Positions 13,881 through 51,700 of a stretch of 62,636 nt of DNA are shown one piece after another. This stretch comes from Aplysia californica (Eukaryota). Below the pieces are notes generated by a model that saw only the letters and a program-made list of their open reading frames with translations, was not told the DNA's origin and ran no database searches. The DNA lies in NCBI RefSeq assembly GCF_000002075.1, contig NW_004798308.1:57163-119798 (forward strand), given 5' to 3'. Numbering within the stretch: the first letter of the stretch is position 1; every line of letters starts with the position of its first letter. The position numbers were made by a program, and so were the translations under genes.

Positions 13881-15710
13881 CATATCATTTCAGTGTATTA
13901 AATTCATCTCAAACTTGACTCAAATAAATGTAAAAACTTACGGCAAACACAAATATTTACACAGAGTCAGACTTTCACAGCGTCAACAAATCATCAGCAA
14001 AGTAAAAGTGACTAGAACGACAATGAAAGACCATTTTAAAATAATTAAGAAAAACTACTCTTTTAAGTCTATTGTTTCATAATTTGACTTTTTCGTTTTG
14101 TTATTTGTTATGTTCTTTTCTCTTTTTCCATATCAGATTGTAAAAACACATGTAATTAATATTGAAGACCAAAGGACAAATTAAAATATTTTAAAATTAA
14201 GATGGCTGCTTCAAACCAGAGACAACAGCAGATGACAAAAAAAAGCTACATGTATTTTGAATTGTATTTTGGTATCAAACATAAATTTCAGAGAAAAGGT
14301 TTGGGATAGTAAAAGTATTCAGCCCCGATACAAATTTCATTTTAGTGAGGGTGCTTCAAACCTGCCTGTCAACTCATACCCAGACAAGGTCAGGAGTAAA
14401 ATCCTAGCAAAAAGATCAACTTATTTGGTAAAATAGATTTCCCCTCAAGAAAATCAACCTGACATCTTTCGATTGTGATGATGAAGAACCAAACTAAAAA
14501 CCTTATAAACTAAAACTTATTAAGACAGCCACTCATTGTCAAAGAAAAAAGTGGCTATCTTATATAGTGCCATTACAATCATATTAGGCTAAAACAGTAC
14601 CTAGACATGGATGGCTGGTGCCTCTGTACTGTAAATAAATTATTGATATTATTGATGGTCATTATAGTCATAATGTGAAAAAAAAACCACAAGGGCGGGG
14701 GGGTGGTTTAAATGTGAATTGCTCACTAGCACAGATGATTTGTCTTAAAAACAGGTGGCCATTATAGCAGTTTCAACTGTACTTCCTTCCCACTTTATTC
14801 TTAAATTCTATCATCCCAATCATAACGGTGCCGAGACCTGAATACTTTCTGAGAATTAAGTTGAGAAAAGCTTCAGAACAATTTCCCTTTAAAACATTAG
14901 TGTAGACCAAATCCTACATTTGAACCTGCTCTTACAGCCAGCCACCTGTCCAAGACAATCAACTGTACAGATGAATACTCCCCCCCCCCCCTACTCAGAC
15001 CCTCAAAAACGTATATATATGCTTTTGACATACCATTTGGCAGCTTATGGGAGGAGTACATCAACAGTATGAGGTTATTTAAACACGAGAGAGCCTCGTA
15101 AACTCCTCAAATAAATAAAGAAGAGGAACATCTTCCTTGAATTTTGAAACTAAAGTCACGTGCACAATAATTGAGCATGGTACCAGCTGAGCTAATGGAG
15201 CAAAGATCAGAATGTTTGTAACAAAATTGAAGTCAACATCATGTTTGACAAGTGACAATGTTTCAAAATAGACCTGATATCCTCAAATAATAGCATATAT
15301 ACAGAGAAACAGAAACGAAGTGGAGTGGTCGACGAATGTCTGACATCTTATGCATCATTTTCCTGCCAAAAAAGAAAGAGACTAGAGATGATCAAACTTG
15401 TAAGAGGTGAGAAAATCAAATGTAGTGTAGTGAGCGTCACATGACACTGTGTAGTGAACATTGTAGCATTACTACAAGTCGTTCACCGGCACGTGATGCT
15501 TGCTCACGCTTCGTTTTGAGTTCATACTTAACTGCGTAGGCCATACATACATGTTCGGTTGCTTTAAGTGTTATTCACTTGCTGGTACAGTGCGCTTCAG
15601 GCTAGGCCTACGCCATGTTCGACGATAAATCTGTGTGATGTGTGTAGTTGTAGGAAAGTAACAAATGACTTCAACCTACATCACCTTTCTGGAGATCTTA
15701 CAACTTTACA

Positions 15711-15980
15711 ACATCACCAGAAGTCACTGTGTACATAGTGAACATAACCAGAAGTCACTGTGTACATAGTGAACATCACCAGAAGTCACTGTGTACATAG
15801 TGAACATAACCAGAAGTCACTGTGTACATAGTGAACATCACCAGAAGTCACTGTGTACATAGTGAACATCACCAGAAGTCACTGTGTACATAGTGAACAT
15901 CACCAGAAGTCACTGTGTACATAGTGAACATCACCAGAAGTCACTGTGTACATAGTGAACATCACCAGAAGTCGCTGTGC
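15711..15980. repeat. 31-bp minisatellite, 8 full units plus a partial unit overlapping the zinc-finger gene stop codon
   Basis: Unit ACATCACCAGAAGTCACTGTGTACATAGTGA, starting at 15711, 15742 ... 15959. Confidence 0.97.
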
Positions 15981-18900
15981 TGAGTGTTGGTGTCCCACCT
16001 GGCCGACCGAGGCTCTGCGTCGCTGTAGCCCACACAACGCTGCCCCGACACACCGGGGTACTCCTGGATGACCGTCACAGCAGGTTCTCCGCGCCGCGCC
16101 GGAACCAACACCGCGGGCTGCTGGAAGGCTTGGCTCTCCAGCGTGTGACTGCCGGGGTAGACCGGTATGACCTGCGGAGCAGTCGAGACTGGGCCAGGGG
16201 GCGGGACCGTGCGAATGGGTGGGACTGAGCCAATAGGAGGAGGGGCTAGGCCAGAAATTGGGATTGGATCAGGGGGCGGGGCTTCGTTTCTCAGAGTGCG
16301 TAAGGCCTGACAGACAGCCATGTTGGTTTCCTGAGAAGAACTCACTGGTTGCGCTGCAGAAAAACTGTTGAACCCGCCACTGATGTTGGTGCTATCGCTG
16401 CTGCTGGTGGCGGTATTGTTACCCTCAGCCGTGGTATTGTTACCCTCAGCCTCCGTCACCCGAACAGAGGCCGCAAGCTTAAGAGGAGACTGACCTCCAA
16501 CAGTTCCTTTCATCTCTCCTGACATCATCATAGCTTTTGGGTTCAGGACACCGTGTGTCCTCCTCAGATGTTTGTTCCTCCCGTAGGCAGCGGTGAACCC
16601 AGCGTGGCACACAGGACACTTGTACGGCTTGAGGCCGCTGTGTTTGAGGCTATGCTTCACTAAGAAGTAGCGCCGTTCGCAGGTGTAGCCGCACAGAGAA
16701 CACTTGTAGGGCCGAGGTCGATTTGCGTCGTGAGTCTTCATGTGAGCTGATAAAGCGGGCTGTATCCTGAAACTTTTGCCGCACTGCGAACAAACAAAAG
16801 GCTTCTCACCGCTATGTTTTCTCGTGTGGTTCAGGAACGGCTCTTTGTGGATGAAAGCCTCTTGACACGTGGGGCACTTGAAGGGAGGATCGCCGCGATG
16901 AACTTTTACATGAAGCTCCAGGGTTTTCTTTTCTTTGAAAGACTCTGAACACTCACCGCACTGGAAAGGCTTTTCAGAGCAATGCTTTCTACTGTGGTAC
17001 CTCAGCAAGCACTGGAAGCGAAACGCTTTCCCACACACCTCACAAATAAACGGTTTCTGTAAGGATGTCTCGCTGTGCCTTATCTCTTTATGGTGATCAC
17101 ATTTTTTCTGGCTGATGAACTTTGCCCCACAAATATTGCAAGGGATCCTTTGCAGTGAGTGCATAGCCTCATGCCTCACCAGCAAGTTGCTGGACTTGAA
17201 AGTTTTGCCACACACCGAGCAAACTCCGCCCGGGTCCCCGAGCATTACCACATCCAGGTGAGCACGCAGGAAGTGACGCTTCAGGTTATGAGCTTGAAGA
17301 AACGACTTGGAGCAAACTTTACAGCAAAACCTGTCCCCTTCCTTTATTTTTTCTTCCCCATCCACAAACACTTCTGTCAGATGCATCTTCAGAAAATGTC
17401 TGCCCAGGGCGTGAAGGTGCAAGAACTGTGCCGAGCAAACTTTGCAGGTGCAGGCGTTCTTCCCATGCTGCTCTTCCTCGTGCATGTCCAACTGGGACTG
17501 GTACTTGAACCTCTCCCCACACTGACCACAGGTCAAGGGAAATACACTCAAAGTCGATGCAGTCGTCTCCTCTTCATTCTCAGATAGGCCTGAATCTGAC
17601 ACAGAAATGCCATGATTGGTCTGCATGTGGGCCTTGAGAATTTTCTTGTTGGCGCACAGAGTACTGCAAAAGTCACACTTGAGCATTCTAGTTGTTCCGT
17701 TTGGGGCGGAGGATCCATTCAGAACTGTAGAACTGAAAAGCGCAGGTTGCCGTTTAGGTACGTCGCTTACTCCGAGAAGATCTGAGCGGACAGAAATCTT
17801 CACCGGATCCTTCGAATCGGTAGATGAATTGGTCACATGTACAAATTTCATATTAAATGTATTTTGCTTTTCCTTATTTTCACCGCGATTTGAAGTTGAA
17901 GGGACTGTGAAAACTTTGAGTCGACTATTATTAGAAACATTCAGCTTTTCACTGATATGAAGAAGCTTGTCAGTCTGTTCATTGCCAGGCGAACAAATTG
18001 TTTCATTCACAACGTCTTGTTCAACATTTGTAAAAGATAAACTAGCCGAGACTTGAGCTCCAGGTTTGTCCACATTAATAACGCATGTACCATTTGTATT
18101 GCTTGGGTTCTCGAGTTCTGAAGAAATCGAAGGAGGAACTGGACTGCTCAAGTCAGGATCAGGGCCATGCCCTCCCCTCATTTCTTGACCACAGTCTGAA
18201 GTTTGTTGACCTTCATCTGTAGAACTGACATTACCCTCGTCTTCCCCACTCTCACGGGCCTTTGATGAAGTTGTGACTTTTGCCCAACATGCATTGGTGG
18301 GTCCTGGCCGTGCTAAGATATTCACAAACACTCTTGGCACTGGACTAGTTAAATTACCCACTCCAGCGTCCGTAACAATAGAATCCTTTATCTTCATCTC
18401 ATTTTCTTCCATCGAGCTAACACTGACATTGTGGCCATCATCAGAGTCCGTTTCCTTCGAGTCAAAAGACTTCAGCAAAGCTTTGGCCTTGGCAGTTCTC
18501 ATTGGTGTCCGGCGACATCTCGTCATCAGCCTCTTGACTCGCTGACCCGTGGCGCAGGTGTTAATTTTTGGTCTCGACTTCTTTTCTGCCGCTGCTGAGA
18601 CAGGGCAATTACCTGCGAGTCCATTGGACGATTTGTTTGCCACAACAACTTGACCTCTGACACAACCGGCTTTACATACAGGGCTCGACTGACATACCAC
18701 ATTTAAGTCTATATTTCTTTTTTTCCTATCAACCTTACTATTCTTTTTTACAATTAGTTCTTTGAGCCTAGCGTCAATATAGGAGTCCGTCATCTCATAG
18801 AACTCACAAGATTCAGAAAGCCTCTTCAAATCTTGAGCGAATTCACAAAGGCAACCTTTACTGGCATCTGATAATGTAAAAAACTTGAATCTCTCATACA

Positions 18901-19204
18901 AAAGCATAAACTTTGGCAAACATATATTTTCTATTTCATCTAGCAAACTAGTAACAGCTGTATCTTCCTTACTGCTCAATGTCAAGAAATTTCTTATTAT
19001 GCTAATCACCTGTGAACCACCAAGAAATAGCAGGACTGACTGACGTGACGATGCAGTGTCCTGAGGTGCCTTCCTCGACTCAGGATATGTATGTGCCCAA
19101 AGCCTTTGCTTTAGCTTCAGCCACCTCTCTGTAGCTATGGAAATACAAGACTTGACAGCATCGTGCTGTGTGAGGGAGAACTCTGAAACGCTCTGTGCTG
19201 GCAT
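15962..19204 (-). CDS. C2H2 zinc-finger protein (12 fingers) with an N-terminal Ty3/gypsy Gag-like domain; single coding exon
   Basis: Uninterrupted ORF with 12 CxxC...HxxxH fingers and linkers such as HSGEKPF, HSGLKPY and HRGDPPF. Best-context ATG is acaATG at 19204; in-frame ATGs also occur at 19249 and 19285. A splice acceptor (ttttttcag|) starts the exon at 19611. Confidence 0.92.
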   Translation of the reverse strand: MPAQSVSEFSLTQHDAVKSCISIATERWLKLKQRLWAHTYPESRKAPQDTASSRQSVLLFLGGSQVISIIRNFLTLSSKEDTAVTSLLDEIENICLPKFMLLYERFKFFTLSDASKGCLCEFAQDLKRLSESCEFYEMTDSYIDARLKELIVKKNSKVDRKKRNIDLNVVCQSSPVCKAGCVRGQVVVANKSSNGLAGNCPVSAAAEKKSRPKINTCATGQRVKRLMTRCRRTPMRTAKAKALLKSFDSKETDSDDGHNVSVSSMEENEMKIKDSIVTDAGVGNLTSPVPRVFVNILARPGPTNACWAKVTTSSKARESGEDEGNVSSTDEGQQTSDCGQEMRGGHGPDPDLSSPVPPSISSELENPSNTNGTCVINVDKPGAQVSASLSFTNVEQDVVNETICSPGNEQTDKLLHISEKLNVSNNSRLKVFTVPSTSNRGENKEKQNTFNMKFVHVTNSSTDSKDPVKISVRSDLLGVSDVPKRQPALFSSTVLNGSSAPNGTTRMLKCDFCSTLCANKKILKAHMQTNHGISVSDSGLSENEEETTASTLSVFPLTCGQCGERFKYQSQLDMHEEEQHGKNACTCKVCSAQFLHLHALGRHFLKMHLTEVFVDGEEKIKEGDRFCCKVCSKSFLQAHNLKRHFLRAHLDVVMLGDPGGVCSVCGKTFKSSNLLVRHEAMHSLQRIPCNICGAKFISQKKCDHHKEIRHSETSLQKPFICEVCGKAFRFQCLLRYHSRKHCSEKPFQCGECSESFKEKKTLELHVKVHRGDPPFKCPTCQEAFIHKEPFLNHTRKHSGEKPFVCSQCGKSFRIQPALSAHMKTHDANRPRPYKCSLCGYTCERRYFLVKHSLKHSGLKPYKCPVCHAGFTAAYGRNKHLRRTHGVLNPKAMMMSGEMKGTVGGQSPLKLAASVRVTEAEGNNTTAEGNNTATSSSDSTNISGGFNSFSAAQPVSSSQETNMAVCQALRTLRNEAPPPDPIPISGLAPPPIGSVPPIRTVPPPGPVSTAPQVIPVYPGSHTLESQAFQQPAVLVPARRGEPAVTVIQEYPGVSGQRCVGYSDAEPRSARWDTNTQHSDFW

Positions 19205-20522
19205 TGTTGTTGGGAAATTCTCCAAGAGTATTAAATATATTTCAATCATGAAAATAATACCATCACTCTTTTTTGGACTGCTCATTTGATCTTTAAGCAG
19301 GGATCCCAAACGTCTGTCTTGTTAAACATTATGTCTCTCAAAGGCTGAAACTCGTGCAAATCTTGCTGGCAGTTTACATAAATATAAGTAGATCTATCTC
19401 CAATAAAAAAGCAGCCAGAGGAATTCGCTCACACAGTAATTTTTCTATACAATTCATTCCTTCGTGACATCCACATGGTTCTAATAAATCTGTCATTCTC
19501 GTTGAAGAAATACATAGAGAGAACTTTCAGACTGCTATCAGTATCTCCAAACAGGCGAACATGGGATGCCAAATGGGCAGGGGAATGAATGACTGCTTTT
19601 GGAATGGTGTCCTGAAAAAAATTGAAAAAAAGAAAGTTGAATAAAATCAAGTTGATTAATGTTTTGCACAACAAACTCTGTTTATGTCAACACAAACCTA
19701 AATATGGTGCATCGTGGTGAAATCAGAGAAACTCAACAAAATAGTGAATTCGAAGAAAATAGATCCCTCTCCTCCCCCCACTCGTCGGGCAGTTTTTTAG
19801 TCAAATCTTTGTTTTGGCTCAGACTGAACACCTTAAACTAACTTGAATAATATATGTTTACATAGGTGCTCCTTTTTGTATATATATATAAATTGGGCAA
19901 AGTCTGGCAGTAAGTCGGGATGGTGATATACGGGGGTTGCACAACAAGGTTTGATTGTATTTTTTAACTGAATAGTAGAGCAGAAAATCACCAAGTAAAC
20001 AGCTTCAACCTCCTTTGAACCTCAATCTGTGAGGCTAACACATCCTTCTAAAGTTGAAGATAAGTTTTCCCTCTTTTTCAATTTTCAGAGATTGGCAGCT
20101 GTGTACAAGTTATTCATGACTAAAAATAGTTTCCACCACAAGGCCTAGCACTTGATTTCAACAGCGACAAAAGAGTTCCCTCCACAATGGCATGCTCTGC
20201 ACGTTTCTCCTGTTGCCAGGACATATAATTTAACGTCACCAGAAAAACAGACTTCAAATTCCAGACACCAGCATAAATGCACGGAGCATGCCAATGGCTC
20301 AATTTCTTTGACGTTGAGTTAAATCCACTTTATCTTTTAGTATTAGTAGTTCTAGGTTTTATGACTACCAGTTGGGGTCACCAAAGTTCATAAAAAGTCG
20401 GTGCGCTGCAAAGTATAGGGCTCCGGAAAGTGGTATTACTGATTTTTTTTTAAGGTACTGTAGTGGGAGGGGTGGGGATGAAGGCAACACTAGATGACAA
20501 ACACTGAACTTGGGAGTTCTGA

Positions 20523-21632
20523 ACTGCCCGGTTACCCTGTGCATGACACTGAGACTACATGCCCGGTTGCCGGTTACCGTACGTAGATATTGAGGCTACA
20601 TGCCCGGTTACCATGTACATGACACTGAGACTACGTGCCCGGTTGCCGGTGACCGTACGTAATATTGAGGCTACATGCCCGGTTACCGTGTACATGACAC
20701 TGAGACTACGTGCCTGGTTGCTGGTTACCGTGTACGTAGACACTGAGGCTAGGTGCCCGATTACCGTGTACATAGACACTCCGTTAAAAAAAATTAATAA
20801 TGCCCCCATTCCGGAGCTCTACTTCGCAGCCCACAGACTTTGAATGAACTTTGGTGACCCACACCAGTACTCACAATGTGACGCGCACACACAAGTTCAC
20901 TGACTGGTCAGGATGACGAGCCCGACAAGATGCATGACTTTCTTTTTTTTTCAACAAGTGACAGCACAGGACAAATATTGATTTATTTTAATTCAGGTTA
21001 CAGTGTTGGTAGATACTGACACTACGTGCCTGGTTACCGTGTATGTAGATACTGAGACTAGGTGCCCGATTACCGTGTACGTAGATACTGAGACTAGTTA
21101 AGTGAGACTAGGTGCCCGGTTACTGTGTACGTAGATACTGAGACTAGGTGAGACTAGGTGCCCGGTTACCGTGTACGTAGATACTGACACTGGGTGAGAC
21201 TAGGTGCCCGGTTACCGTGTACGTAGATACTGAGACTAGGTGAGACTAGGTGAGACTAGGTGCCCGGTTACCGTGTACGTAGAAACTGAGACTAGGTGAG
21301 ACTAGGTGCCCGGTTACCGTGTACGTAGATACTGAGACTAGGTGAGACTAGGCGCCCGGTTACCGTGTACGTAGATACTGAGACTAGGTGAGACAAGGTG
21401 CCCGGTTACCATGTACGTAGATACTGAGACTAGGTGCCCTGTTACAGTGTTCGTAGATACTGACACTACGTGCCCGGTTACCGTGTGTTGGTTATATAGA
21501 TACTATACTGAGGAGACTAGGTGCCCGGTTACCGTGTGGTGTACGTAGATACTGAGACTAGGTGAGACTAGGTGCCCGGTTGCCGTGTATATAGACTGAG
21601 ACTATGTGCTTGATTACCGTGCACGTAGACAC
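20523..21632. repeat. 36-46 bp minisatellite in two blocks (about 20523-20780 and 20996-21632) in the zinc-finger gene 5' intron
   Basis: Unit GAGACTAGGTGCCCGGTTACCGTGTACGTAGATACT with a variable 10-bp GAGACTAGGT stutter. Confidence 0.93.
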
Positions 21633-21677
21633 TCCAAAAGTTAAAAGTGAGTCTTAAACTTTAACTAAAAAACTTAC

Positions 21678-22050
21678 TTGACACTCATTCAATTTCAAAT
21701 TTCAAAATATAAGAAGTCTTTAACTTGTTTAGAGATCTAAACGAGAGATTCAGGATCTGTAAACGCTACACTACATTGCACAAGAGAGTCTGCCCGTTTG
21801 TTTCACTGCTTTTAGGCTTTACCAAGTGAAAAATATGAATAGATCTTGAAATGTAAGATCATCTCTGTAGACAAGGCTTCGTAGACCATTATAATATTAT
21901 TTTTAACAGGTTAAAAGTAAGTGTCTCTTGTCGTGCTATATATAACTATAAGTATAGTGCTAGATTAGATCTAATTTCATAGCAATTTCCAGTCGGAGTT
22001 TTACATTCAACTGTCGTGTCCTCAAAACTAAGATCGCAAAATTTGTGTTG
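21678..22050 (-). other. Probable non-coding first exon of the zinc-finger gene
   Basis: GTAAGT donor on the minus strand at 21677-21672, next to the divergent promoter region. The 5' boundary is a guess. Confidence 0.4.
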
Positions 22051-22423
22051 CTGTTATTTCCGACGAAACAAAATTATTTTCAGTTTGGCGATCAGGTTGT
22101 ACGAAAGAAAGTCTGAGAGAATGTTATGCTCCAATTCAATATTTATAACTATTTAGAGCTGAAAATCAAAGAGAAATGACTCAAGGAGAACCCCCCCTCC
22201 CCCCATAGTACGACGATAGTGTACCTGAACCCTCCCGTCCTTATACATGTAATTGGTGTTTTGCTGATTTTATATAATACACGTATGTGGGCCAACCTGT
22301 CCTGTTATGACCCGAAGCTTTTTGGGGTCAACTAGACGTAAACAACAGAGCTGTGTTATGAAATGTGAGCCTGGGCAGTGACACGGAAATCTGGAATTAA
22401 ATTATGTAAAGAAGATTAAGAAC
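21900..22423. promoter_or_regulatory. Probable bidirectional promoter, zinc-finger gene / FAD oxidoreductase
   Basis: Divergent GTAAGT donors at 21677 (-) and 22424 (+), about 750 bp apart. Confidence 0.45.
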
Positions 22424-22703
22424 GTAAGTGTTTGTCGGTTAAGAAGTCTTCTTGACGGTTAAAAACCTTTCGTCTGGGGATTTTTTAGCTGTTGTAAGAG
22501 CAGCTTTGCTTCCACAAGCCACATTTGGTCCTGGAAATTATGTTGATGAGGTTACGCTCGCAGCAGATCACATTTTATTGACTCATGTCTTGTGAGTGGA
22601 GAGGGAGTTAAACGGGTGCTGTGGAACCATCTATGCTCGACACGTCGTTTTTTGCCTTGTATACGATTGCTCTATATGTGTAAATTCTGTGAACTCTAGG
22701 GAT

Positions 22704-25700
22704 ATGACTACCACAGACACGCAAGTTATGAAAGAAACATCGTCAGCAGGTGAAAACCATAGTACCATCATGTAAGTGTCTTGATGTGTGCGGTGACTAT
22801 CTTATTTAGATCTAGATCTAGATCTATGTCAAAAAGGGTCAAGTGTATGCAAGTAGCCTATATCAAGTGGGATCGAGATGTGCAAAGAAGGTCTCTTTGA
22901 TCTTCCACTATAGCCACTAGGACCAATTAAGAACTGTTATGAATGCTGTGATAAGATTATAAGGAACAGCAATAACACAAATAAAATTGAGTGTAGGCCT
23001 AGGCCAATGACTGCAGCTGCTTTTCTTGTGGTCTTATATAAAGTGTGGAGGTTGATGCGTTTTATGATATCACTGCATGATCAATCAAAGGCCTTTTTCT
23101 TTAATAGGATATGAGTCCAAGCTGTGATTGCTGCAGGTGAAACCTTAATTGTGAACTGTATAGGAAATGGTATAAAATTATAATGATAATAATCTAGGTT
23201 TACTGAATTCTTTTTCATGAAACAGTCACCGCAATCAGGGTATTTAATACCCTTTTTTGTTTTAGGTAGAATTATTAATTATCAAAGCAAAATGGGCTTA
23301 ATTTTTTATTATTAAATATAGCTGTGCAGTCATTTCATTTTAAGTTGGTGAGCTTCAGATGTGGTTTCTATATTGTCTGGTCTAGTTGCCAAATATTCTG
23401 TTCACAAATTTTGCGGTCTTTTCATCTTAAAGTCTATTCAGGTTTGGTTATGTAAATGCACATAGTCAAATTTTTTCGGCTCCTTTTTTTATCACAAAAT
23501 ATGAATTGAGAACTCCAATGGGTTTTTTTCTCATCAAGAATTTCATTTTTAATTTTGTTTGCATTGTCCGCTTGTAACATTTTTTTCTCAGTCTCGAATG
23601 CTACATCATCGCTTCAGGAATGAAACATATTTAATGAGCAAAAACATGTGAATGAACTAAGGTCCCCGCTGTGTGTTTTGTATAGATCTATATTTTATTT
23701 ACATTTTTTTTTTCCTCCTTTTCGTAGACAACCAGACACCCTGTCACAACATTCCAGGATCAGCGGTGGTAGTAGCTCTCCGTCTCAGGAAGGCAGCGTC
23801 CCAAGTAGCCCCAGTAGTAAAAGCAACAAAGTGGGAGACTCCAGCGTTGTGTTGGACATGCCGCCCACTGCGAGAAAACCGTTGGTGACAAAGCGCAAGC
23901 GAGTCCTTATCGTGGGTTCTGGAGCCTCGGGGACTGCTGCGGCTTACGCTTTGGGGAAACATCCGGACAAGTTTGATGTTCAAGTGTGGGAAAAGTTGTC
24001 ACTTCCTGGAGGTGTGGCTACTTCGGAACATATAGAAGGTAGGACACATCAGGAGCTGCTGTTGAATTCATTCTTGAGATGGGAAACTACAATAATATTG
24101 TTGTTAGACCAATAGTAATAGAACATTTCCCTGCTCGTCTTTTTATCTTGTCTGCCCCCCCCCCCCCACCTGCACCTCCACCCTCCCCTTGCTCTTTTAT
24201 TTTTATTGATTTTTATTGACTTTTTTAATGTGAATTTACACCCCGATCAACATAATTAGGATCATTCAGGAGGGGGGGAGGCTTTCAACCCTGCCGCTGG
24301 GGCTGAGAGGGATGCAGCAGCCCAGAAGAAAGACTAAGACACTCAAGTAAAATTTCTCACCGCTGGAGAATCAAACTCAGTTCTTCTGCATGTGCCAGTG
24401 GAGCTCCTAACCACAACACCACAGATAGTGGTCCAGACATTTAGGGAGCCAGGCTGGTTGTAAAATTTCGGGGTCTTGGGAGTTATTGGTTTTGCCTTAA
24501 AGTGTGTTCATTTATTTTGCTCTTGAGGAAAGATATATACCCGTTCATCATGAAAAGAGGTTGAGATATGATTGAAGGAAGGAGGTGGCGGTCTCCTGGT
24601 GTCAAAGGTAAAGTTATTGAGAAAAAGATTGCCAAAACTTGGTAACTGCCAAAGCGGGAGTGTCCTTGGAAACTACAAATTTACATTTTTGTGCCTTTGA
24701 TCAGTGTTTTTGAATTTAAAAATGCATACATGTTTTAACCGAACTTGAAAGAAATAAAATTTCGCTGAAAATTGCCCAACAGATGGAAAAATGTAGATTT
24801 CTTCGATTTCACTATTTTGACTTGGGTCTGATTTCACTATGATGCCACACAACATACAAAAACATTTAACTTTCACTCTAATTGTAAATGAAGTAAAGAT
24901 GTGAATTCTGAAAATATTGAAATTTGTGAATTTCATCTGATATCATATCTGTATGATATGAAGACCAGGGTTTTTAAAATTCTGTTCAGTGGGTGGTTGG
25001 CGGGTGCTCTGGTGTGGTTTGCTTCTTCTTTCGTATCAAACGTATTATATTGTCTTTATCTCTCCTTCTTCTTTTTTGTGATTGTTACTCTCTTGTAGCA
25101 CCTCTAATCTTCAGCACTTATATGACCTTATTGTGTTGCAAATGCAGTAAAACTCTTACTAAAACTAAAATTCTGTTTTGTTTGAATGTCTCAGGACCAG
25201 GTGACCTGGTTATCAACGATGGAGTCCAGGGCGGCTGTCCGACGTATCGGAACACGCTGAATCTGATGTCAGAGTTCGGCTTCTCCGGTTCCCCCGTCCA
25301 CATGATGATTTCTTTTGGAAAAGGGCCGACAGCCTGGACTAACTACACAAAAACCGATCTGATCGATCGACTGAAGGATGAAATCAAACGCTTTGGTCGC
25401 ACGTTGAAGATCATAAACAAGTTAGAATTTTTCTTCATTTTTATTCCCATCTCGAAAGTTCTCAAGTGGTTTGGCTACTCTGATGCATTCTGCTACGAGA
25501 TGGTCTTCCCTCTGACTGCGCTATTTTTCGGCACTGGGAATCAAACACCAAATGTATCGGCAGCAATTGTGGCGAGAGTGTTCCTCGATGATGACCTACG
25601 GCTTTTCGATTACGACCCTGAGTGTCTTTTGAGCCAAACTCCTGAGATGTTCGCATTTCCTAAACTGAGAGACATGTATCAAACAATTATGCGCAAAATG

Positions 25701-26519
25701 GAAACCCAATATCACGCAAACAGAGCTGTTGCGTCGGTCATCAGAAGGAATGGTAAAGTCCACGTTGTCGATGATGCTGACAATGAAGAGGTCTTTGATG
25801 AAATCATCTTTGCCTGTGACGCTGAAACAGTCCTCCGAGTTTTAAAGCAACCGTCGTATCTGGAGAAAAAAGCTCTTGGTAATGTTAGGTATTACAATGA
25901 TGTCACACTCACCCATGAAGATGATGAGTACATGGAAAAACATTACGAACTCCACAAAGACGTTGATCAGTACTTCATCCGTACTGACCCCAACGACAGG
26001 TCGAAGCTTGAAATGTCCTTCAATCTTTCAAACTATCAGCCCCACTTGAAAGACACGGGACGGAATATATACCAAACCATCTTTTTGGATGACAAGATCA
26101 AGGACATTTGGACCATCGATGAAATCGACAAGAGCAAAGTGAGATTCACGCGGTGGTGGAGACAGTTCTCCCACACCTGGAAACATTTTGCGTTCACCGT
26201 GCCCTTGTGGCGCTACGTGCAGGGCACCAAACACACGTGGTACTGCGGGTCCTACACGCTCATCAACACCCATGAAATCGGAATAATCTCGGGTTTTGCT
26301 GCTGCGTGCAGGCTCGGAGCTTCCTACCCGTTCATTGAGGACAAACTCGCTCGCGAGCAGTTTGAGCAGTATCTACTCATGATCCACGGCAAACCACGAC
26401 GGTACGGATGCAACGGAGCTACATTCCTCTCTATTCTCTTCGCTCCTCTCATGTTCATCTTTGTGGGGCTGGCTCTTTTTGTTCAGTTTATCATGAGGTG
26501 TTGCGGGAAAGATGTTTAG
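22704..26519 (+). CDS. FAD/NAD(P)-binding oxidoreductase (flavin amine-oxidase-like / COG2907-like) with a C-terminal transmembrane anchor; exons 22704-22771, 23728-24038, 25195-26519
   Basis: Rossmann motif RVLIVGSGASGTAAAYAL...VWEK...PGG, then INDGVQGG, FDEIIFAC, WYCGSYT..NTHE.GIISG. Hydrophobic tail ATFLSILFAPLMFIFVGLALFVQFIMRCC. Phases join in frame (AT|A, G|GA). A likely non-coding upstream exon ends at 22423 (GTAAGT). Confidence 0.88.
24989..25170 (+). mobile_element. Retroposon copy just upstream of the oxidoreductase last-exon acceptor
   Basis: Same family as 12632-12808. It explains the spurious N-terminus of ORF 24993..26519. Confidence 0.8.
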
Positions 26520-43600: not shown

Positions 43601-46600
43601 TTCACTGTCTATAGCTGGGTACCCATTCTCACCTGGGTGAAGTGGGGAAAATTCGAGTAAAGTGCCTTTTCCAAGGACACAACGTCGAGCCCGCAGCTCG
43701 AACCCCCAAACCCACAACCTCACGAATACAATTACAAGTCCGATAGCTTAACTACTAGACTACCGACGCCACAAAATTAGCTACAGAGTGCACTTTGGAC
43801 AAAATAATTCTGAGGCGACGATATCACCAGTGCAGCGAATAGGTTTAGTAGTTATAAAGTAAACTGCCTTGTGTTTAAACCTTCATCCATGAATAGGCTA
43901 TGTGTTCATCAGTAGATCTTGCAAACAAGCTAAAAAAATCTTTATTCTACAACAAAATTAACTTTTTCAGCTGGGGGGGGGGGGGGGGGGGGGGAATGAA
44001 CAGTCTTATCCTCATTGATGCAGTGCTCCTCAGTAAGAAGATGTACTAGAAGACATTAGGCACAACAGATATTTTGACACAATCACAAACTCTCATCACT
44101 GATACTGATATCAACATACCCTATCTTTGACACCAAAAGATATGTCTACAAAGACATAATTGCTCTTGTCAAAGCCAGCCAGCTCAGGATCAACAGACAG
44201 GGGGGTCAAGTGAGGTCGACGTGGCTTCATGTACGGGGGCATCTGTAATCTGTGCTGTAGCCTCTCTTTCGCTGAGCTAAGTTCCTGGATACCAGGAAGA
44301 GAGAAAGAGAGAGAGACAGTCAACTTTGAGCAGACAAGTACAGTGAAATCAACTAATATCTAACTTGTCTATTTTTCCACAAAATGGTACAAATTATAAT
44401 CCTCTTTTTACCCCCATTCTGGAAATGGTTGTAAAAACCTTGCCTACAACAAACCTTAAAGTCTGGTCTCTGAGGCCTCGAATCATTCACATATTCCACA
44501 GTTCAGAATGCTATGCTTGTTGGAATTTTGAAGGGTTTCTTTACACCCAACATTTATTTTCCATCTTGAACAGCCAAGGCAATGCTCGAAAAGTAAGTGC
44601 TGGTACTACACGACACGTAAACCAAAGCAAAATGTTAACACATATATTACACGTCATGTGTCCTTCTTCAATTATTGCACAGTGGGAATATTCTTCACCA
44701 GCCAAAAAGCAAAGAGACAAAAAGAACAAGACAATGATCTTGTTTTATTCCTTTCTCAAGTCATTTCCCCTTTTGTCTTATGCAGAGTCAAATTTTGTAA
44801 CTCTGTACTCCCCTTATATCATGATATGTGAGGCAATGTGGTGAAATCAGGTGCTCATCAAAATAATGAAACGGAAGAAACAGGCATTTTTCAGTCAGCT
44901 GAGCAATTTGTATCGAATTTTTTTTTTTGGCTCAACGCCTTTTATGTTCATAGAAAAACACATTTCCATGTGAATGTTACTGAAAAACGTTGATTAAAAG
45001 CACAAGATATGTAATTGTCAAGTTTTCAAGGACTTTCAAGCTATTGATGAAGCTACCAAACTTTGGCGGCTATTTTCTCGGTAATTTTACCACTGAAACC
45101 TAGTGACCACACCCCCTTCAATCGCAAATATAGAGACTTCTATTTGAGATAGATAGGTATTTTTTTCATTGAAAGCAATGCAAATGAATAAGTATTCAGA
45201 TGATATCAATAATTCCACATGCTCAAAAATTGACGAGTGCCTGATTCCACCGCGTCATAACATAGATGAAAATTTCAAAATTCTTTAATTCATGATAACT
45301 AAATCAGAAACAATTGTAGAAGAGACAGCAGGGTGTACAGTGAAAGATAAATCCTTGTAGGCCGTTCTCCTGAACTGATTGAAAACCCTACGTATCTTCT
45401 GGCTCAAAATTCTCCCAGCTTAATCTCTATTATAAAGAATAATTTTGAAAGTTGAACTTCATACAAGACAAAATAAGACATGAAATAGTTACAATTGGAG
45501 AATATTGTAACAACAGGCAAGTTTGAAGGAAAGAGAGGCAGAGGCAGACAGAGGGAAAAGATACTGGACAAGATGACAACATGGCTAGGAGCAGCAAGAA
45601 CAACAGACACCATTGCTGCAATGTAAGACAGAGTGAAGTGGAGGTCCATGATCGCCCACGCCAGTCGGCAAGGCACCGGATGATGATGATGATAGTTACA
45701 TTTGACTCTGCACAAGACAAGAAAGGAAATGACATGCGAAACGAATCAAAAAAAGATCATTATTTTCTCATTCATTCCCTTTGTCTCTCTTTGCTTTTCG
45801 ATGGGCGAATAATTCTCCAGCTGCACATCAAACAACATTTTTTTAAACTATCATTTATAAATTTATAAATAAATACACCAAAGTAAGATGCGGCTTACGG
45901 CATTGAGTTGCTCATCAGTCATCAATTTGTATATCGGTCGCTGTAACGGTTTCTTCTGGGGCCCAGCGACCTTCATGAGGTCAAAGCCTGTGATTCTGGT
46001 CAGTAGTTCTTGCACTCTCGGCTGGACGAACACAGGAAACGGGTCCCTCTCTTCATTTTCAGGAGCAGCACTCACAGCATCGCTGGCGCTGTTATCTGTT
46101 TCAAAGCAACACAGGAAAAAGTGTTCAACATGAGAAGAAATTTTATTTGGAGGAAACTGTCTGAGGCGGCCAGCCAGCCATTGTCGAGGGGAAAAGTGGT
46201 TGTCTTAGGCAGGTGGAAGTCTTCAACAGTGTCCATTACAATAAAGATAGAGACAGAGACAGATAGNNNNNNNNNNNNNNNNNNNNNNNNNNNNNNNNNN
46301 NNNNNNNNNNNNNNNNNNNNNNNNNNNNNNNNNNNNNNNNNNNNNNNNNNNNNNNNNNNNNNNNNNNNNNNNNNNNNNNNNNNNNNNNNNNNNNNNNNNN
46401 NNNNNNNNNNNNNNNGACACCAACAGACAGACAGACAGACAGAGATAGACAGAGAGGGGGATAAGTGGGAAGTGATTGTTTGTACAGGTGACTGTTTTAG
46501 ATGGGTGTCCGATAAAGCAGATTTGACTGTAGAGAGAGAGAGAAAGAGATGGGGGGGAGGAGGGGAGGGGGACACAAGAGAGAAGGGGCAAGTGAAATAA

Positions 46601-48386: not shown

Positions 48387-51300
48387 ATGCAGAGGCACAT
48401 TACAGACAGGGTGGATTTCTCTAAGTTTGGAGTTCCTAGCTGGAGGATAGAACAGAGATATGCGCCTGGAGTTTTGATTGGCAACTGGTCAGAGGAGCGA
48501 CTGGCGGTTAGTTATCTTAGTAGGCCTAGTTATCTCTATACTATACTAGATTTCTAGATCATAGATTATAATATTACAGACCTGATGTATGAATTACGTT
48601 TTGAATTGTGTATCTTCTAGCCATCCACCAAGTCCCAATTCTATTTTGGCTATTCTTTCGTCTCCGTCACTCCCAAAAATGTGGATGTCACTGTTATGTG
48701 TTGTGTGATTAGTGTAAAAATTGAGATAAAATTATTATTTATAACGAGAATATTAAATAAGACTTAAATTAATGACAAAAGACATCAGTCATGATCAGTG
48801 GAGTGTACCCCTTCACCTCACTCTTTCCTTTTCACTTTGGAGGTGTCCAAGTAGATAATTATCTACACCTAGTTTTCTCATATAATAATTATATATATAT
48901 GAAAATGCTTTTATTCTCGTTGGAAAGACGTACGGTTCTTCTGTGGATTTCAAGAGTCACAACTCAGTTCTTATCTATTGGTTTCCCTTGTTCATTCTAT
49001 GATAGAATTTAATGTTTCTTTGATGATGTACTGACTCACGAGGGAGGTTAATTACAGCTAGAGTGTTGGTGATGTTTAAAAATAGTAAATGATATCAAAT
49101 AGGCCTTTATATAGGTTACGCCTGTCTGAGGGATGTGCAATTTTTTTAATGCAATTGAAAACTAGAACAGGCTTCAGCTTCTTAGTGAATTTTGAGACCA
49201 ATTATTGTCACCCTGATTTAGTAAAGTATTAATTTTTATTAAGGAACTAAATATGAAACAGATGGTCACAATTATGTGTAAGTGGGGAAAATATGACTGA
49301 ATGGGTGAGACTGTCCGACACTTTGACTATACTTCAGAGGAATTAATTGATTGAACCAACATAGGATGTCATCGATCTTGCAATTGACCTACTGGGCAGA
49401 GCTCACATGCTTAAGCAAAAAGTATGTGTAAGTGCATATAGTGGTGTACTTCATTTTGTCGTCTGCTAGTCTACGCATTCCCCTCGCCCTTCACCCCAAC
49501 CCCTCCTTCTGATAAAAATGGCCTCACGTTATCAGTTACAGCATTACTTTGCCTGTTTTGGTTGCTTGTATGAACTATCGAGGAACCGATGTGCTAGAAA
49601 ATCTGGGGTGCTATTTTAAATAAATATAAGGAGGATGCAAAGGGTGCCCTCTCCTTTCCTCCTCGTCCTCACACCCCCAAGTGTCTTTCATTGAACTTTG
49701 TAACAGAAAAGTTCATGTGTAAATCGGACCTTGAAGGGGACCTCTTCTTAGCATACACTAAGTATGATAAAGCAGCTTAGAAAAGTTTATTAGCCATAGC
49801 TAAACCTGTTCTTAAACAGATTTCTAGGCTTAATACCACAGTCGGATTTGTCGACATATATGGCCACCCATTGTCAACGCAAGGTGGAATATCTTTGAAG
49901 TGGCTGCTTGTACAGGTGATTGTCTTGGACAGGTGGCTGTTAGATCAGGTTCGACTATTAGAAAAGGTTCTTAGATGGGCAAAATAATTAAGAAAAAATA
50001 TTTTTCAGAATAAAGATAGGCTCGTAGACAGCGCCTGCTTTTTATGCGGAGTATCTGCATTTCATCTCATCTCATCTTTCATGCTTTCATATCTTAACTC
50101 CTGCAATCCTCTCTTTGGAAACCTTCCATCTAAAATGATAAACAGATAACAGGGACTTCAGAATCAAGTTGCTGTTGAAAATGTAATAAGAAACCTTGTT
50201 TGCCTTGCGTGCTTGTTGTGTGCCTTTCATTGTAGCAAGCTATTTCTCTTTCTGTTTCAGTTTCCAAAAGGCAAATATCAGCATAACTCTACAAATCGAG
50301 TCGACTTCAAAAACTATGGCTCGGTTGAGCCAGACGTATTGTTGCGTCGCAAAGCAAAGCTCGGCAGTGAGGGCATCCCCGCGGACATGCTGTTTCGCCA
50401 CCATGGCCGTGCTTATGACAACATGATGATCACTTTGTACGATGAAAACTATAACGGCAGATGGAAGGAGAGGGACATGCCCCATCTGCGGTCCTGGGAT
50501 GGCCAAAAATTGGGCTGGCTCCCTGAAAGAACTGATCATCCCCTCAGAGGTATGCTGCTTTATGGTGATGTAAATCCTGAACTCATTCAGTGCTGAGAGT
50601 GATTCCATTCATATTTCGTATACATTTAATTGGGTATATTCAGAAAAAGCCTTCAAACAAAAACTGCTGAACCAGTCTTTATGTATGGCTTTTTTAAATT
50701 CCAACAATGGAAATTCAGCATTTACAGTTGTAAGGTCTAGGGAAACTTTTTGTCAAGCTAAGAGAGTAAAATTAAAAATAGCACAGATTTTATAGTTTTG
50801 AAGGAAATATAGTGGTCAAATAAACTAGGCTCATGCTCAGTTCATTAAAAAATACGTCTGATTTTTTGTTCAGATAGTAATTGTGTTAATTCTACCAAGG
50901 TTTTTTTAAGAACTGTTGGAACTCTGTTTAGTTGAACTGAGTTTGACCTCGTGAGAAAAAAATGTGTCAGTTCACGGTTGAGTTTGTCACTGTATTTGAA
51001 ATTGAAAGATCACTCTGCCATACTTTAAAAGGATTTTTTCCTCAAGACCTATTTAGTTTTAAAATTACGTAACAGTGTTTGTAATTTATGTAAGTTGTAC
51101 ATTCTCAAGTGAGATTGCATCCTAGTTTCATTCAGTGGCTTTGATCATATATGCTGGATTGATTTTACTTTCAGAGCAATACGTTCCTTTTCCACTACAA
51201 CTGGATCTGTATTCTTGATTTCGTAACTCATCACAGAACAAGACAAAATTTTCTCCTGATCATCAGTCAAGCCTTACTTTTCCGACATTTGATACTGACT

Positions 51301-51700
51301 GCAATATTGGCATTTTGGAAGCCCCCCCTTTCAACATTGTCAGATTATCACACAGATGAAAGTAATAAACGCGTATTCCTTTACATTGAATGACTTTCTG
51401 TTGTTTCTATTTCCGTCTGTAGGGCCCCCCACCAACTTTGGACTGAAGGAACACGTTGAAGCCCAGCAGTTGGCCAGACAGCAAGAGATGAACCGCCCGG
51501 ACTTTGAGTCCACTTACTCAGGCTCCTACAAGGATCAGCCTCTGGACTCGATGCGCTTCACAAGATATGCCACCCCGAAACATCTGTCCACCACCCTGCT
51601 GCCGTCCAACAAGTCGAACAATGACCTTCACCTTCGTGGCAAGCCCAATTTGAGACTGCCGGAGATTATGCCTGCGGAGCTTACACAAATTTCTGTGTAG
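48387..51700 (+). CDS. CFAP107: Cilia- and flagella-associated protein 107 (C1orf158) homolog, a microtubule inner protein; exons 48387-48506, 50261-50549, 51423-51700
   Basis: PSWRIEQRYAPGVLIGNWSEER, HHG...ITLYDENYN, LRSWDGQKLGWLPERTDHPLRGPPTNFGL and STYSGSY match the recalled C1orf158 pattern (PSW.IE.KY...VL.GNW.EER; LR.W.GQKL.WLPE..D.PL..PPTNYGL). Phases 0 and 1 are consistent. Confidence 0.9.

Follow-up and report, generated by a model that had tools for sequence, protein, structure and literature searches.

A gastropod family of C2H2 zinc-finger genes with a probable Ty3/gypsy Gag capsid at the N terminus

The gene described here lies on the minus strand of a 62,636-nucleotide stretch of the Aplysia californica genome (contig NW_004798308.1, positions 57,163 to 119,798); the whole stretch is called the window below, and coordinates given without a contig or locus refer to it. 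An earlier note had pointed out that a block at 18749-19147, upstream of 12 C2H2 zinc fingers, resembles a Ty3/gypsy Gag capsid. The block is indeed there, in a stop-to-stop frame of 1119 codons (15962-19321) that also carries the fingers, but its extent proved slightly wider (about 18689-19186). The explanation that we consider probable is that this is a host C2H2 gene with a gypsy capsid as its N terminus, belonging to a gastropod family that likely goes back to one ancient capture, and that the capsid likely serves these proteins as a module for pairing with themselves and with each other. The parts of this explanation are not equally firm. Comparison of the sequences makes us nearly certain that the block is homologous to the Gag capsid and domesticated, and the pairing role, proposed by analogy, is only somewhat better than an even guess.

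The relationship to Gag comes out most clearly in profile comparisons. On a hidden Markov model of 40 true Gag sequences the window domain scores 69.1 bits. The best of 2000 shuffles, of which 1980 were reported, reaches 7.8, and the score of the reversed sequence is -1.5. A family profile made from 10 finger-linked domains aligned to the Gag profile with a probability of 99.8% (E 3e-29) over 169 columns covering both capsid lobes, at 22% identity, in a test that is not blind because the Gags were chosen with the family's own sequences and profile. The Gag set includes two complete polyproteins, L060 and L061, whose Gag frame also encodes protease, reverse transcriptase (RT), RNase H and integrase as judged by Pfam, and two database neighbours (P0011, P0034) carry the NCBI name K02A2.6-like; we take Mag to be the clade name for these K02A2.6-like gypsy elements. 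These results bear out both the resemblance to a gypsy capsid and the colinearity with Mag/K02A2.6-type Gag that the earlier note had claimed. A search of the Aplysia genome with the window domain returned 21 matches, 20 of them non-self: 13 gypsy Gag copies, some of which continue in frame into a CCHC knuckle, protease and RT, six matches in frames with 8-16 C2H2 fingers, and one decayed piece. Independently of this, the best matches in a language-model atlas were Retrotrans_gag clusters for the window domain (0.94, 144 shared features) and for its paralog L023 (0.96, 172 shared features).

Models of the domain are all-helical, with predicted local distance difference test (pLDDT) scores of 69.5 and 80.7. 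When Foldseek's own 138 picks for the first model were re-aligned with VIA, the top 44 rows were all capsids; the best of these reached Z 6.3 with a root-mean-square deviation (rmsd) of 2.9 over 66 C-lobe residues (model residues 103-174 to the capsid C-terminal domain, CA-CTD), and the best non-capsid Z 3.5. None of the fold listings contained a structure of SCAN, Ty3 or Arc, an absence that rules nothing out.

The surroundings of the domain are those of a host gene and not of a retrotransposon. No CCHC knuckle, protease, RT, RNase H, integrase or long terminal repeat (LTR) goes with the window gene, and its neighbours are cellular genes. A tblastn search with five polyproteins from the same genome gave no protease, RT or integrase match in the window, these polyproteins matching the window and 20 family or neighbouring loci through their Gag part only, and no LTR-like direct repeat was found at 8000-30000. 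The absence of such parts had been noticed before, and both searches agree with it. The coding sequence (CDS) is a single exon, as had also been proposed, and a candidate splice acceptor, strong by sequence, precedes the likely start ATG (19204) by 407 nt. Other ATGs of the frame lie upstream of it (19249, 19285); the start is likely at 19204 because the paralogs start at the matching position and the ATG at 19249 is altered in sequencing run X7, which has an M-to-R difference at 19248. An in-frame fusion with no rest of the element fits the earlier proposal that a capsid was co-opted as the N-terminal module of a host zinc-finger (ZNF) gene.

The window gene is not alone. The search for further Gag-ZNF fusions that the earlier note had suggested, carried out with the window domain, eight paralog domains and a walk along contig C89, recovered 11 capsid-ZNF genes in the genome, eight with both lobes and three with the N-lobe only (Table 1; E values for the latter come from a profile built without those three members). 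Besides the window gene, six of them were among the matches to its domain and four more came from the further searches. All 11 have a candidate splice acceptor 7-407 nt before the start. Five of them (L025, L024, L023, L050, L051) lie in mixed orientation within ~90 kb of contig C89 (1542000-1631000), likely the ancestral cluster. As a control, none of 37 frames with five or more fingers (40 loci, 39 chosen by finger score) carries the capsid domain. In L062 the finger array extends into a second exon, which has a long Gln/His-rich tail. NCBI lists the proteins that match L040, L022 and L050 as zinc-finger proteins of Aplysia californica. Gag pieces at L055 and L110 were considered as members and rejected as ordinary broken elements.

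Relatives are found in other snails. The family profile matched 10,513 proteins at E<=0.001, of which the best 150 were examined together with six from another search, giving 154 proteins. Three or more C2H2 matches were present in 21 of these: four from the Aplysia genome itself, one Gag-Pol protein with spurious matches and 16 true relatives; four further proteins were partial or finger-less. The named sources are Lymnaea, Physella, two Biomphalaria, Candidula, Bradybaena, three Elysia and Plakobranchus, so that every named holder among the relatives examined is a euthyneuran gastropod, with at least 10 named species. The euthyneuran split is more than 200 million years old. In four ortholog pairs of L023 the domain is 48-67% identical, the linker 20-25% and the fingers 60-71%, and between L023 and the Candidula protein P0005 nine of the last 11 finger signatures are identical. 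In the L023 and L024 lineages the finger signatures are almost unchanged between distant snails and across orders; the window gene, L022 and their sacoglossan relatives have only the last signature in common. The L023, L024 and L026 lineages occur in several gastropod orders, which at the level of the family gives orthologs across at least two host families, the criterion of Wang and Han 2021.

A maximum-likelihood tree separates 20 capsid-ZNF domains from 35 Gags by a branch with 100/99 support and a length of 0.8, with one change in all 200 bootstrap trees; the tree is unrooted, it was built without the long-branch members L025, L040, L050, L051 and L054, and fast evolution could draw the capsid-ZNF domains together. 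The trees also leave aside about half of the 60 dereplicated Gags, L062, and five proteins that are near-duplicates or have a split domain (P0003, P0006, P0026, P0030 and P0046). On this tree, it is likely that a single capture took place before sea hares, sacoglossans and pulmonates diverged. In the sacoglossan L023 orthologs P0026, P0030 and P0046 the match to the domain falls into two pieces, with the break after profile position 105, which suggests an insertion between the lobes. Another protein, P0021 (819 aa), has an L022-type capsid domain and a long tail devoid of any C2H2 match; it is possibly a finger-less member or a partial assembly.

The state of the window copy itself calls for more caution. 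Its closest relative is the paralog L022 (35% identity in the domain, 27% in the linker, 47% in the fingers), with which it groups, together with L024-type and sacoglossan proteins, in one branch of the tree (starred). Between these two domains synonymous sites are saturated (pS 0.82, pN 0.45, the synonymous and nonsynonymous differences per site). In the C-lobe, the Q..GE positions, which we take to be the major homology region and which are kept in Gags and in L022, have been replaced, and the final stretch of ~30 residues is basic and hard to align; the C-terminal lobe of the window copy is likely partly decayed. The differences listed between run X7 (DNA-like) and the reference CDS comprise nine synonymous and three amino-acid-changing sites (pN/pS about 0.10), a partial list beyond which stand 34 further rows; two of the three listed differences within the domain are synonymous. 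In three poly(A) RNA runs a few minus-strand reads cover the domain (mean depth 0.4-1.9 in 18716-19059), and they pile up beside A-rich stretches, which suggests a 3'-tag library with internal priming. These reads hint at transcription of the window gene. A search of sequencing runs gave no RNA run among the matches listed.

Several observations weigh against our explanation, whether as applied to the family or to the window copy. Pfam matches no Gag family in the window domain, and PDB sequence searches with the domain or the profile were blank, the A4 profile matching finger and knuckle parts only; Pfam finds no Gag family even in the Gag of the intact element L060. None of three Foldseek searches (PDB, BFVD) gave a match at E<=0.001, E values being above 1, and in a wide VIA search the PNMA2 capsid, second with Z 5.2 (rmsd 6.9, 109 residues, the longest alignment among the top rows), was tied with unrelated helical proteins. 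With the five long-branch members added, the tree keeps the same split at a support of 74. Ortholog pairs of L024 and L026 are just 32-34% identical in the domain, with linkers at 17-30%. For the window gene, no one-to-one ortholog was found among the best-ranked matches of domain, family-profile and finger-array searches: a word-index search with the window domain recovered only itself, and the finger-array search was swamped by unrelated ZNFs, with no ortholog in the best 120 of 473. One run X7 contig (depth 40) has a 1-base deletion at 18743, in an A-rich stretch, with which the frame would end just after the domain; five RNA reads over 18743 are all free of it. The three poly(A) runs gave no RNA read over the finger region. 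To these points are added the choice of the Gag set, the partial difference list and the exclusion of long-branch members from the supported tree.

How might such a protein work? The fingers would bind DNA, and the capsid domain would pair the proteins with themselves and with their paralogs, as is known for SCAN domains, which multimerise according to the accessible text of PMC4592553. Oligomerisation of the capsid lobes could then make several finger arrays act together or bring paralogs into mixed complexes. The N-lobe is present in all members and the C-lobe is missing or eroded in several, which makes the N-lobe the likely site of the working surface, the reverse of the situation in SCAN. 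As the C-lobe of the window copy is likely partly decayed, any pairing by its product would therefore rest mainly on the N-terminal lobe.

The best placed of the alternatives, possible but well behind in our estimate, is that the domain has given up self-association and become a KRAB-like effector, on which a host co-repressor or co-activator docks. Fast divergence from Gag and among the paralogs would be expected of it, as would the loss of the C-lobe in three members and the insertion after the N-lobe in three sacoglossan proteins, but the best-kept members retain the full two-lobe pattern and no partner is known. Docking and pairing are not exclusive, and this reading is compatible with the one we prefer.

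One may also ask whether the family is real and the capsid of the window copy a decaying leftover, the gene working by its fingers only or being close to a pseudogene, which we find rather unlikely. Together with L024 and L026, the window copy has the longest end branch (1.3) of the two-lobe members retained in the tree, and the lost Q..GE positions, the poorly alignable end, the lack of an ortholog found outside the genome, the deletion in run X7 and the paralogs that have shed the whole C-lobe all point that way. On the other hand, its frame is open across 1119 codons, the W, CLP, YERF and CEF motifs are kept, the domain is more conserved than the linker in comparison with L022, and the listed CDS differences in run X7 are mostly synonymous (9 of 12).

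Less plausible still is an anti-retrotransposon decoy, in which the domain would attach to the shells that active gypsy elements build from Gag, much as Fv1 acts on retroviruses, and bring the fingers to the DNA of these elements. A decoy role, which the accessible text of PMC4592553 shows to have been raised earlier for SCAN, would agree with the retention of both lobes in 8 of the 11 members and with the presence of intact related gypsy elements in the genome, but less so with the long branch that separates the capsid-ZNF domains from all sampled Gags. The near-constancy of the L023 and L024 finger signatures across orders favours stable host targets for these lineages over an arms race with transposable elements (TEs). 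A role against TEs may still apply to the window gene's own subfamily because its finger signatures turn over faster. The earlier note had suggested a TE-recognising ZNF family: that there is a family was right, and recognition of TEs is weakly contradicted by the conserved L023 and L024 signatures and by expanded finger clusters that have no capsid domain. A recent gypsy insertion that happens to be in frame with an ordinary finger gene, or a chance match, to which the blank Pfam and PDB searches might point, has practically no chance of being right given the shuffle control, the 11 paralogs with the same arrangement, the orthologs in other snail orders and the missing LTR and pol remains.

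Returning to the capsid as a pairing module of host ZNF proteins, the known system with the closest layout is the tetrapod SCAN-ZNF family (Crtg7 in Wang and Han 2021), which also has a gypsy capsid-derived N-terminal domain on tandem C2H2 arrays and has also expanded by duplication, partly in clusters. Membership in the SCAN family was considered and rejected: Pfam gave no SCAN match at E<=1, hhalign of the family profile with nine SCAN-bearing proteins gave a probability of 0.02% (E 0.99), both lobes align to Gag, the donor is another and the hosts are gastropods. The earlier note's proposal that the domain is independent of vertebrate SCAN is thereby supported. The Gags nearest to the snail family are those of K02A2.6-like single-frame elements, and the intact related elements L060 and L061 have the order RT-RNase H-integrase; in Gmr1 elements the integrase precedes the RT. 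As far as the accessible text of two studies goes, SCAN is a C-terminal lobe only, from a Gmr1-like donor, in tetrapods (PMC8321522, PMC4592553), in contrast to the both lobes, or N-lobe alone, of the snail family with its gastropod hosts. By its predicted make-up, the snail capsid-ZNF family is likely a second, independent fusion of capsid and fingers, laid out like SCAN-ZNF.

Other comparisons are more distant. Arc, dArc, PNMA and PEG10/RTL also hold a full or N-lobe-only capsid in a single coding exon, and the window domain has weak fold matches to PNMA2 and PEG10; these genes differ from the snail family in having no tandem C2H2 fusion and in lineage and host. The half capsids of LDOC1 type parallel L051, L054 and L062, to judge from the accessible text of PMC11011659. 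With Mag/K02A2.6-like Gags the family has the colinear capsid domain in common, and differs in its own CLP.F.L.YER motif, the long separating branch and the lack of pol parts and LTR. The KRAB, ZAD, BTB and FiNZ ZNF families similarly join a lineage-specific N-terminal module, a linker and a finger array; to our knowledge none of these modules is capsid-derived, and none was matched by Pfam in the window gene.

Table 1. Features of the capsid-ZNF gene, its divergent neighbour and the family in Aplysia californica (window coordinates unless a locus is named).
Feature	Position	Strand	Remarks
Capsid-ZNF gene CDS	15962..19204	-	single exon; 1080 aa counted from the likely ATG (19204)
Gag capsid domain, both lobes	about 18689-19186	-	Gag-profile and family-profile matches
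Gag capsid N-terminal lobe	18899..19186	-	helical; W, CLP, YERF motifs; retained in all 11 family members
Gag capsid C-terminal lobe, worn	18683..18898	-	A-rich coding stretch; model residues 103-174 align to CA-CTD
Low-complexity linker, about 335 aa	17678..18682	-	poor conservation, 27% to paralog L022
12 C2H2 zinc fingers	16553..17677	-	Pfam and finger matches
Pro/Ser/Thr-rich C-terminal tail	15962..16552	-	terminates within 31-nt tandem repeat (15710-15979)
Predicted splice acceptor of coding exon	19611..19630	-	polypyrimidine tract and CAG; exon would begin 19611; sequence only
Predicted splice donor (GTAAGT), upstream non-coding exon	21672..21678	-	sequence only
FAD-dependent amine-oxidase-like gene, divergent neighbour	22420..26519	+	predicted donor 22424; coding exons about 23730-24040, 25195-26519
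Two-lobe members			window gene, L022, L023, L024, L025, L026, L040, L050
N-lobe-only members	L051:3708-6191; L054:2942-5980; L062:3143-4696		E 1e-7; E 3e-16; E 1e-5, respectively

Around the gene, divergent predicted donor sites at 21677 (-) and 22424 (+) are the basis for the prediction that it may share a promoter region, near 21700-22400, with the amine-oxidase-like gene. The latter, noted at 23624-26519 (+), has a large, nearly intron-free coding exon and a weak Pfam match (E 0.03). A 36/46-nt minisatellite, high-copy in the genome by read depth, occupies 20511-21630 inside the predicted intron, and the stop codon of the capsid-ZNF gene is overlapped by the 31-nt tandem repeat. Other exons of the window belong to an RPE65/carotenoid oxygenase-like gene (2759-3061, +), MRPS22 (45863-46204, -) and CFAP107 (50150-51700, +). 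Elsewhere in the genome, gypsy copies with uninterrupted 1300-aa Gag-Pol frames occur at L060, L061, L068, L069 and L071. Contig C282 (624000-821000) holds at least 12 closely related multi-finger frames that have no capsid domain; this cluster is the better candidate for a young, fast-evolving ZNF expansion.

We found no description of a snail capsid-ZNF family in the full-text literature, subscription journals and bioRxiv supplements being outside the scope of that search. In its accessible parts, the survey of Wang and Han 2021 (PMC8321522) lists 14 deep gag co-options, none in molluscs; its search used Pfam models, and its table includes the proteomes of Aplysia californica, Elysia chlorotica and Biomphalaria glabrata. 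The snail family was missed there; Pfam models do not recognise the window domain. The accessible text of Wells et al. 2023 (PMC10547256) contains no occurrence of gag, capsid or SCAN, and that of Henriques et al. 2024 (PMC11011659) deals with vertebrates and describes N-lobe-only half capsids.

In animals, the tetrapod SCAN family was so far the sole known case of a retrotransposon capsid fused to tandem zinc fingers, and the purpose of that family is still unclear. If our explanation is true, the snail genes would be a second case, from another Gag lineage and with the whole capsid or the other lobe, and such capture would be a repeatable route to families of transcription factors. They would also offer a natural comparison for what a capsid lends to a DNA-binding protein. 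Surveys driven by Pfam overlook domesticated Gags of the K02A2.6-like lineage, and snail genes now annotated merely as 'zinc finger protein' gain a named N-terminal domain. A bolder and rather doubtful conjecture is that euthyneuran capsids still assemble, so that about 11 paralogs in mixed capsid-like rings or lattices gather finger arrays on chromatin or trap gypsy Gag. Were this so, a full-capsid counterpart of SCAN would exist in the animals that serve as the main models for memory research and for schistosome transmission.

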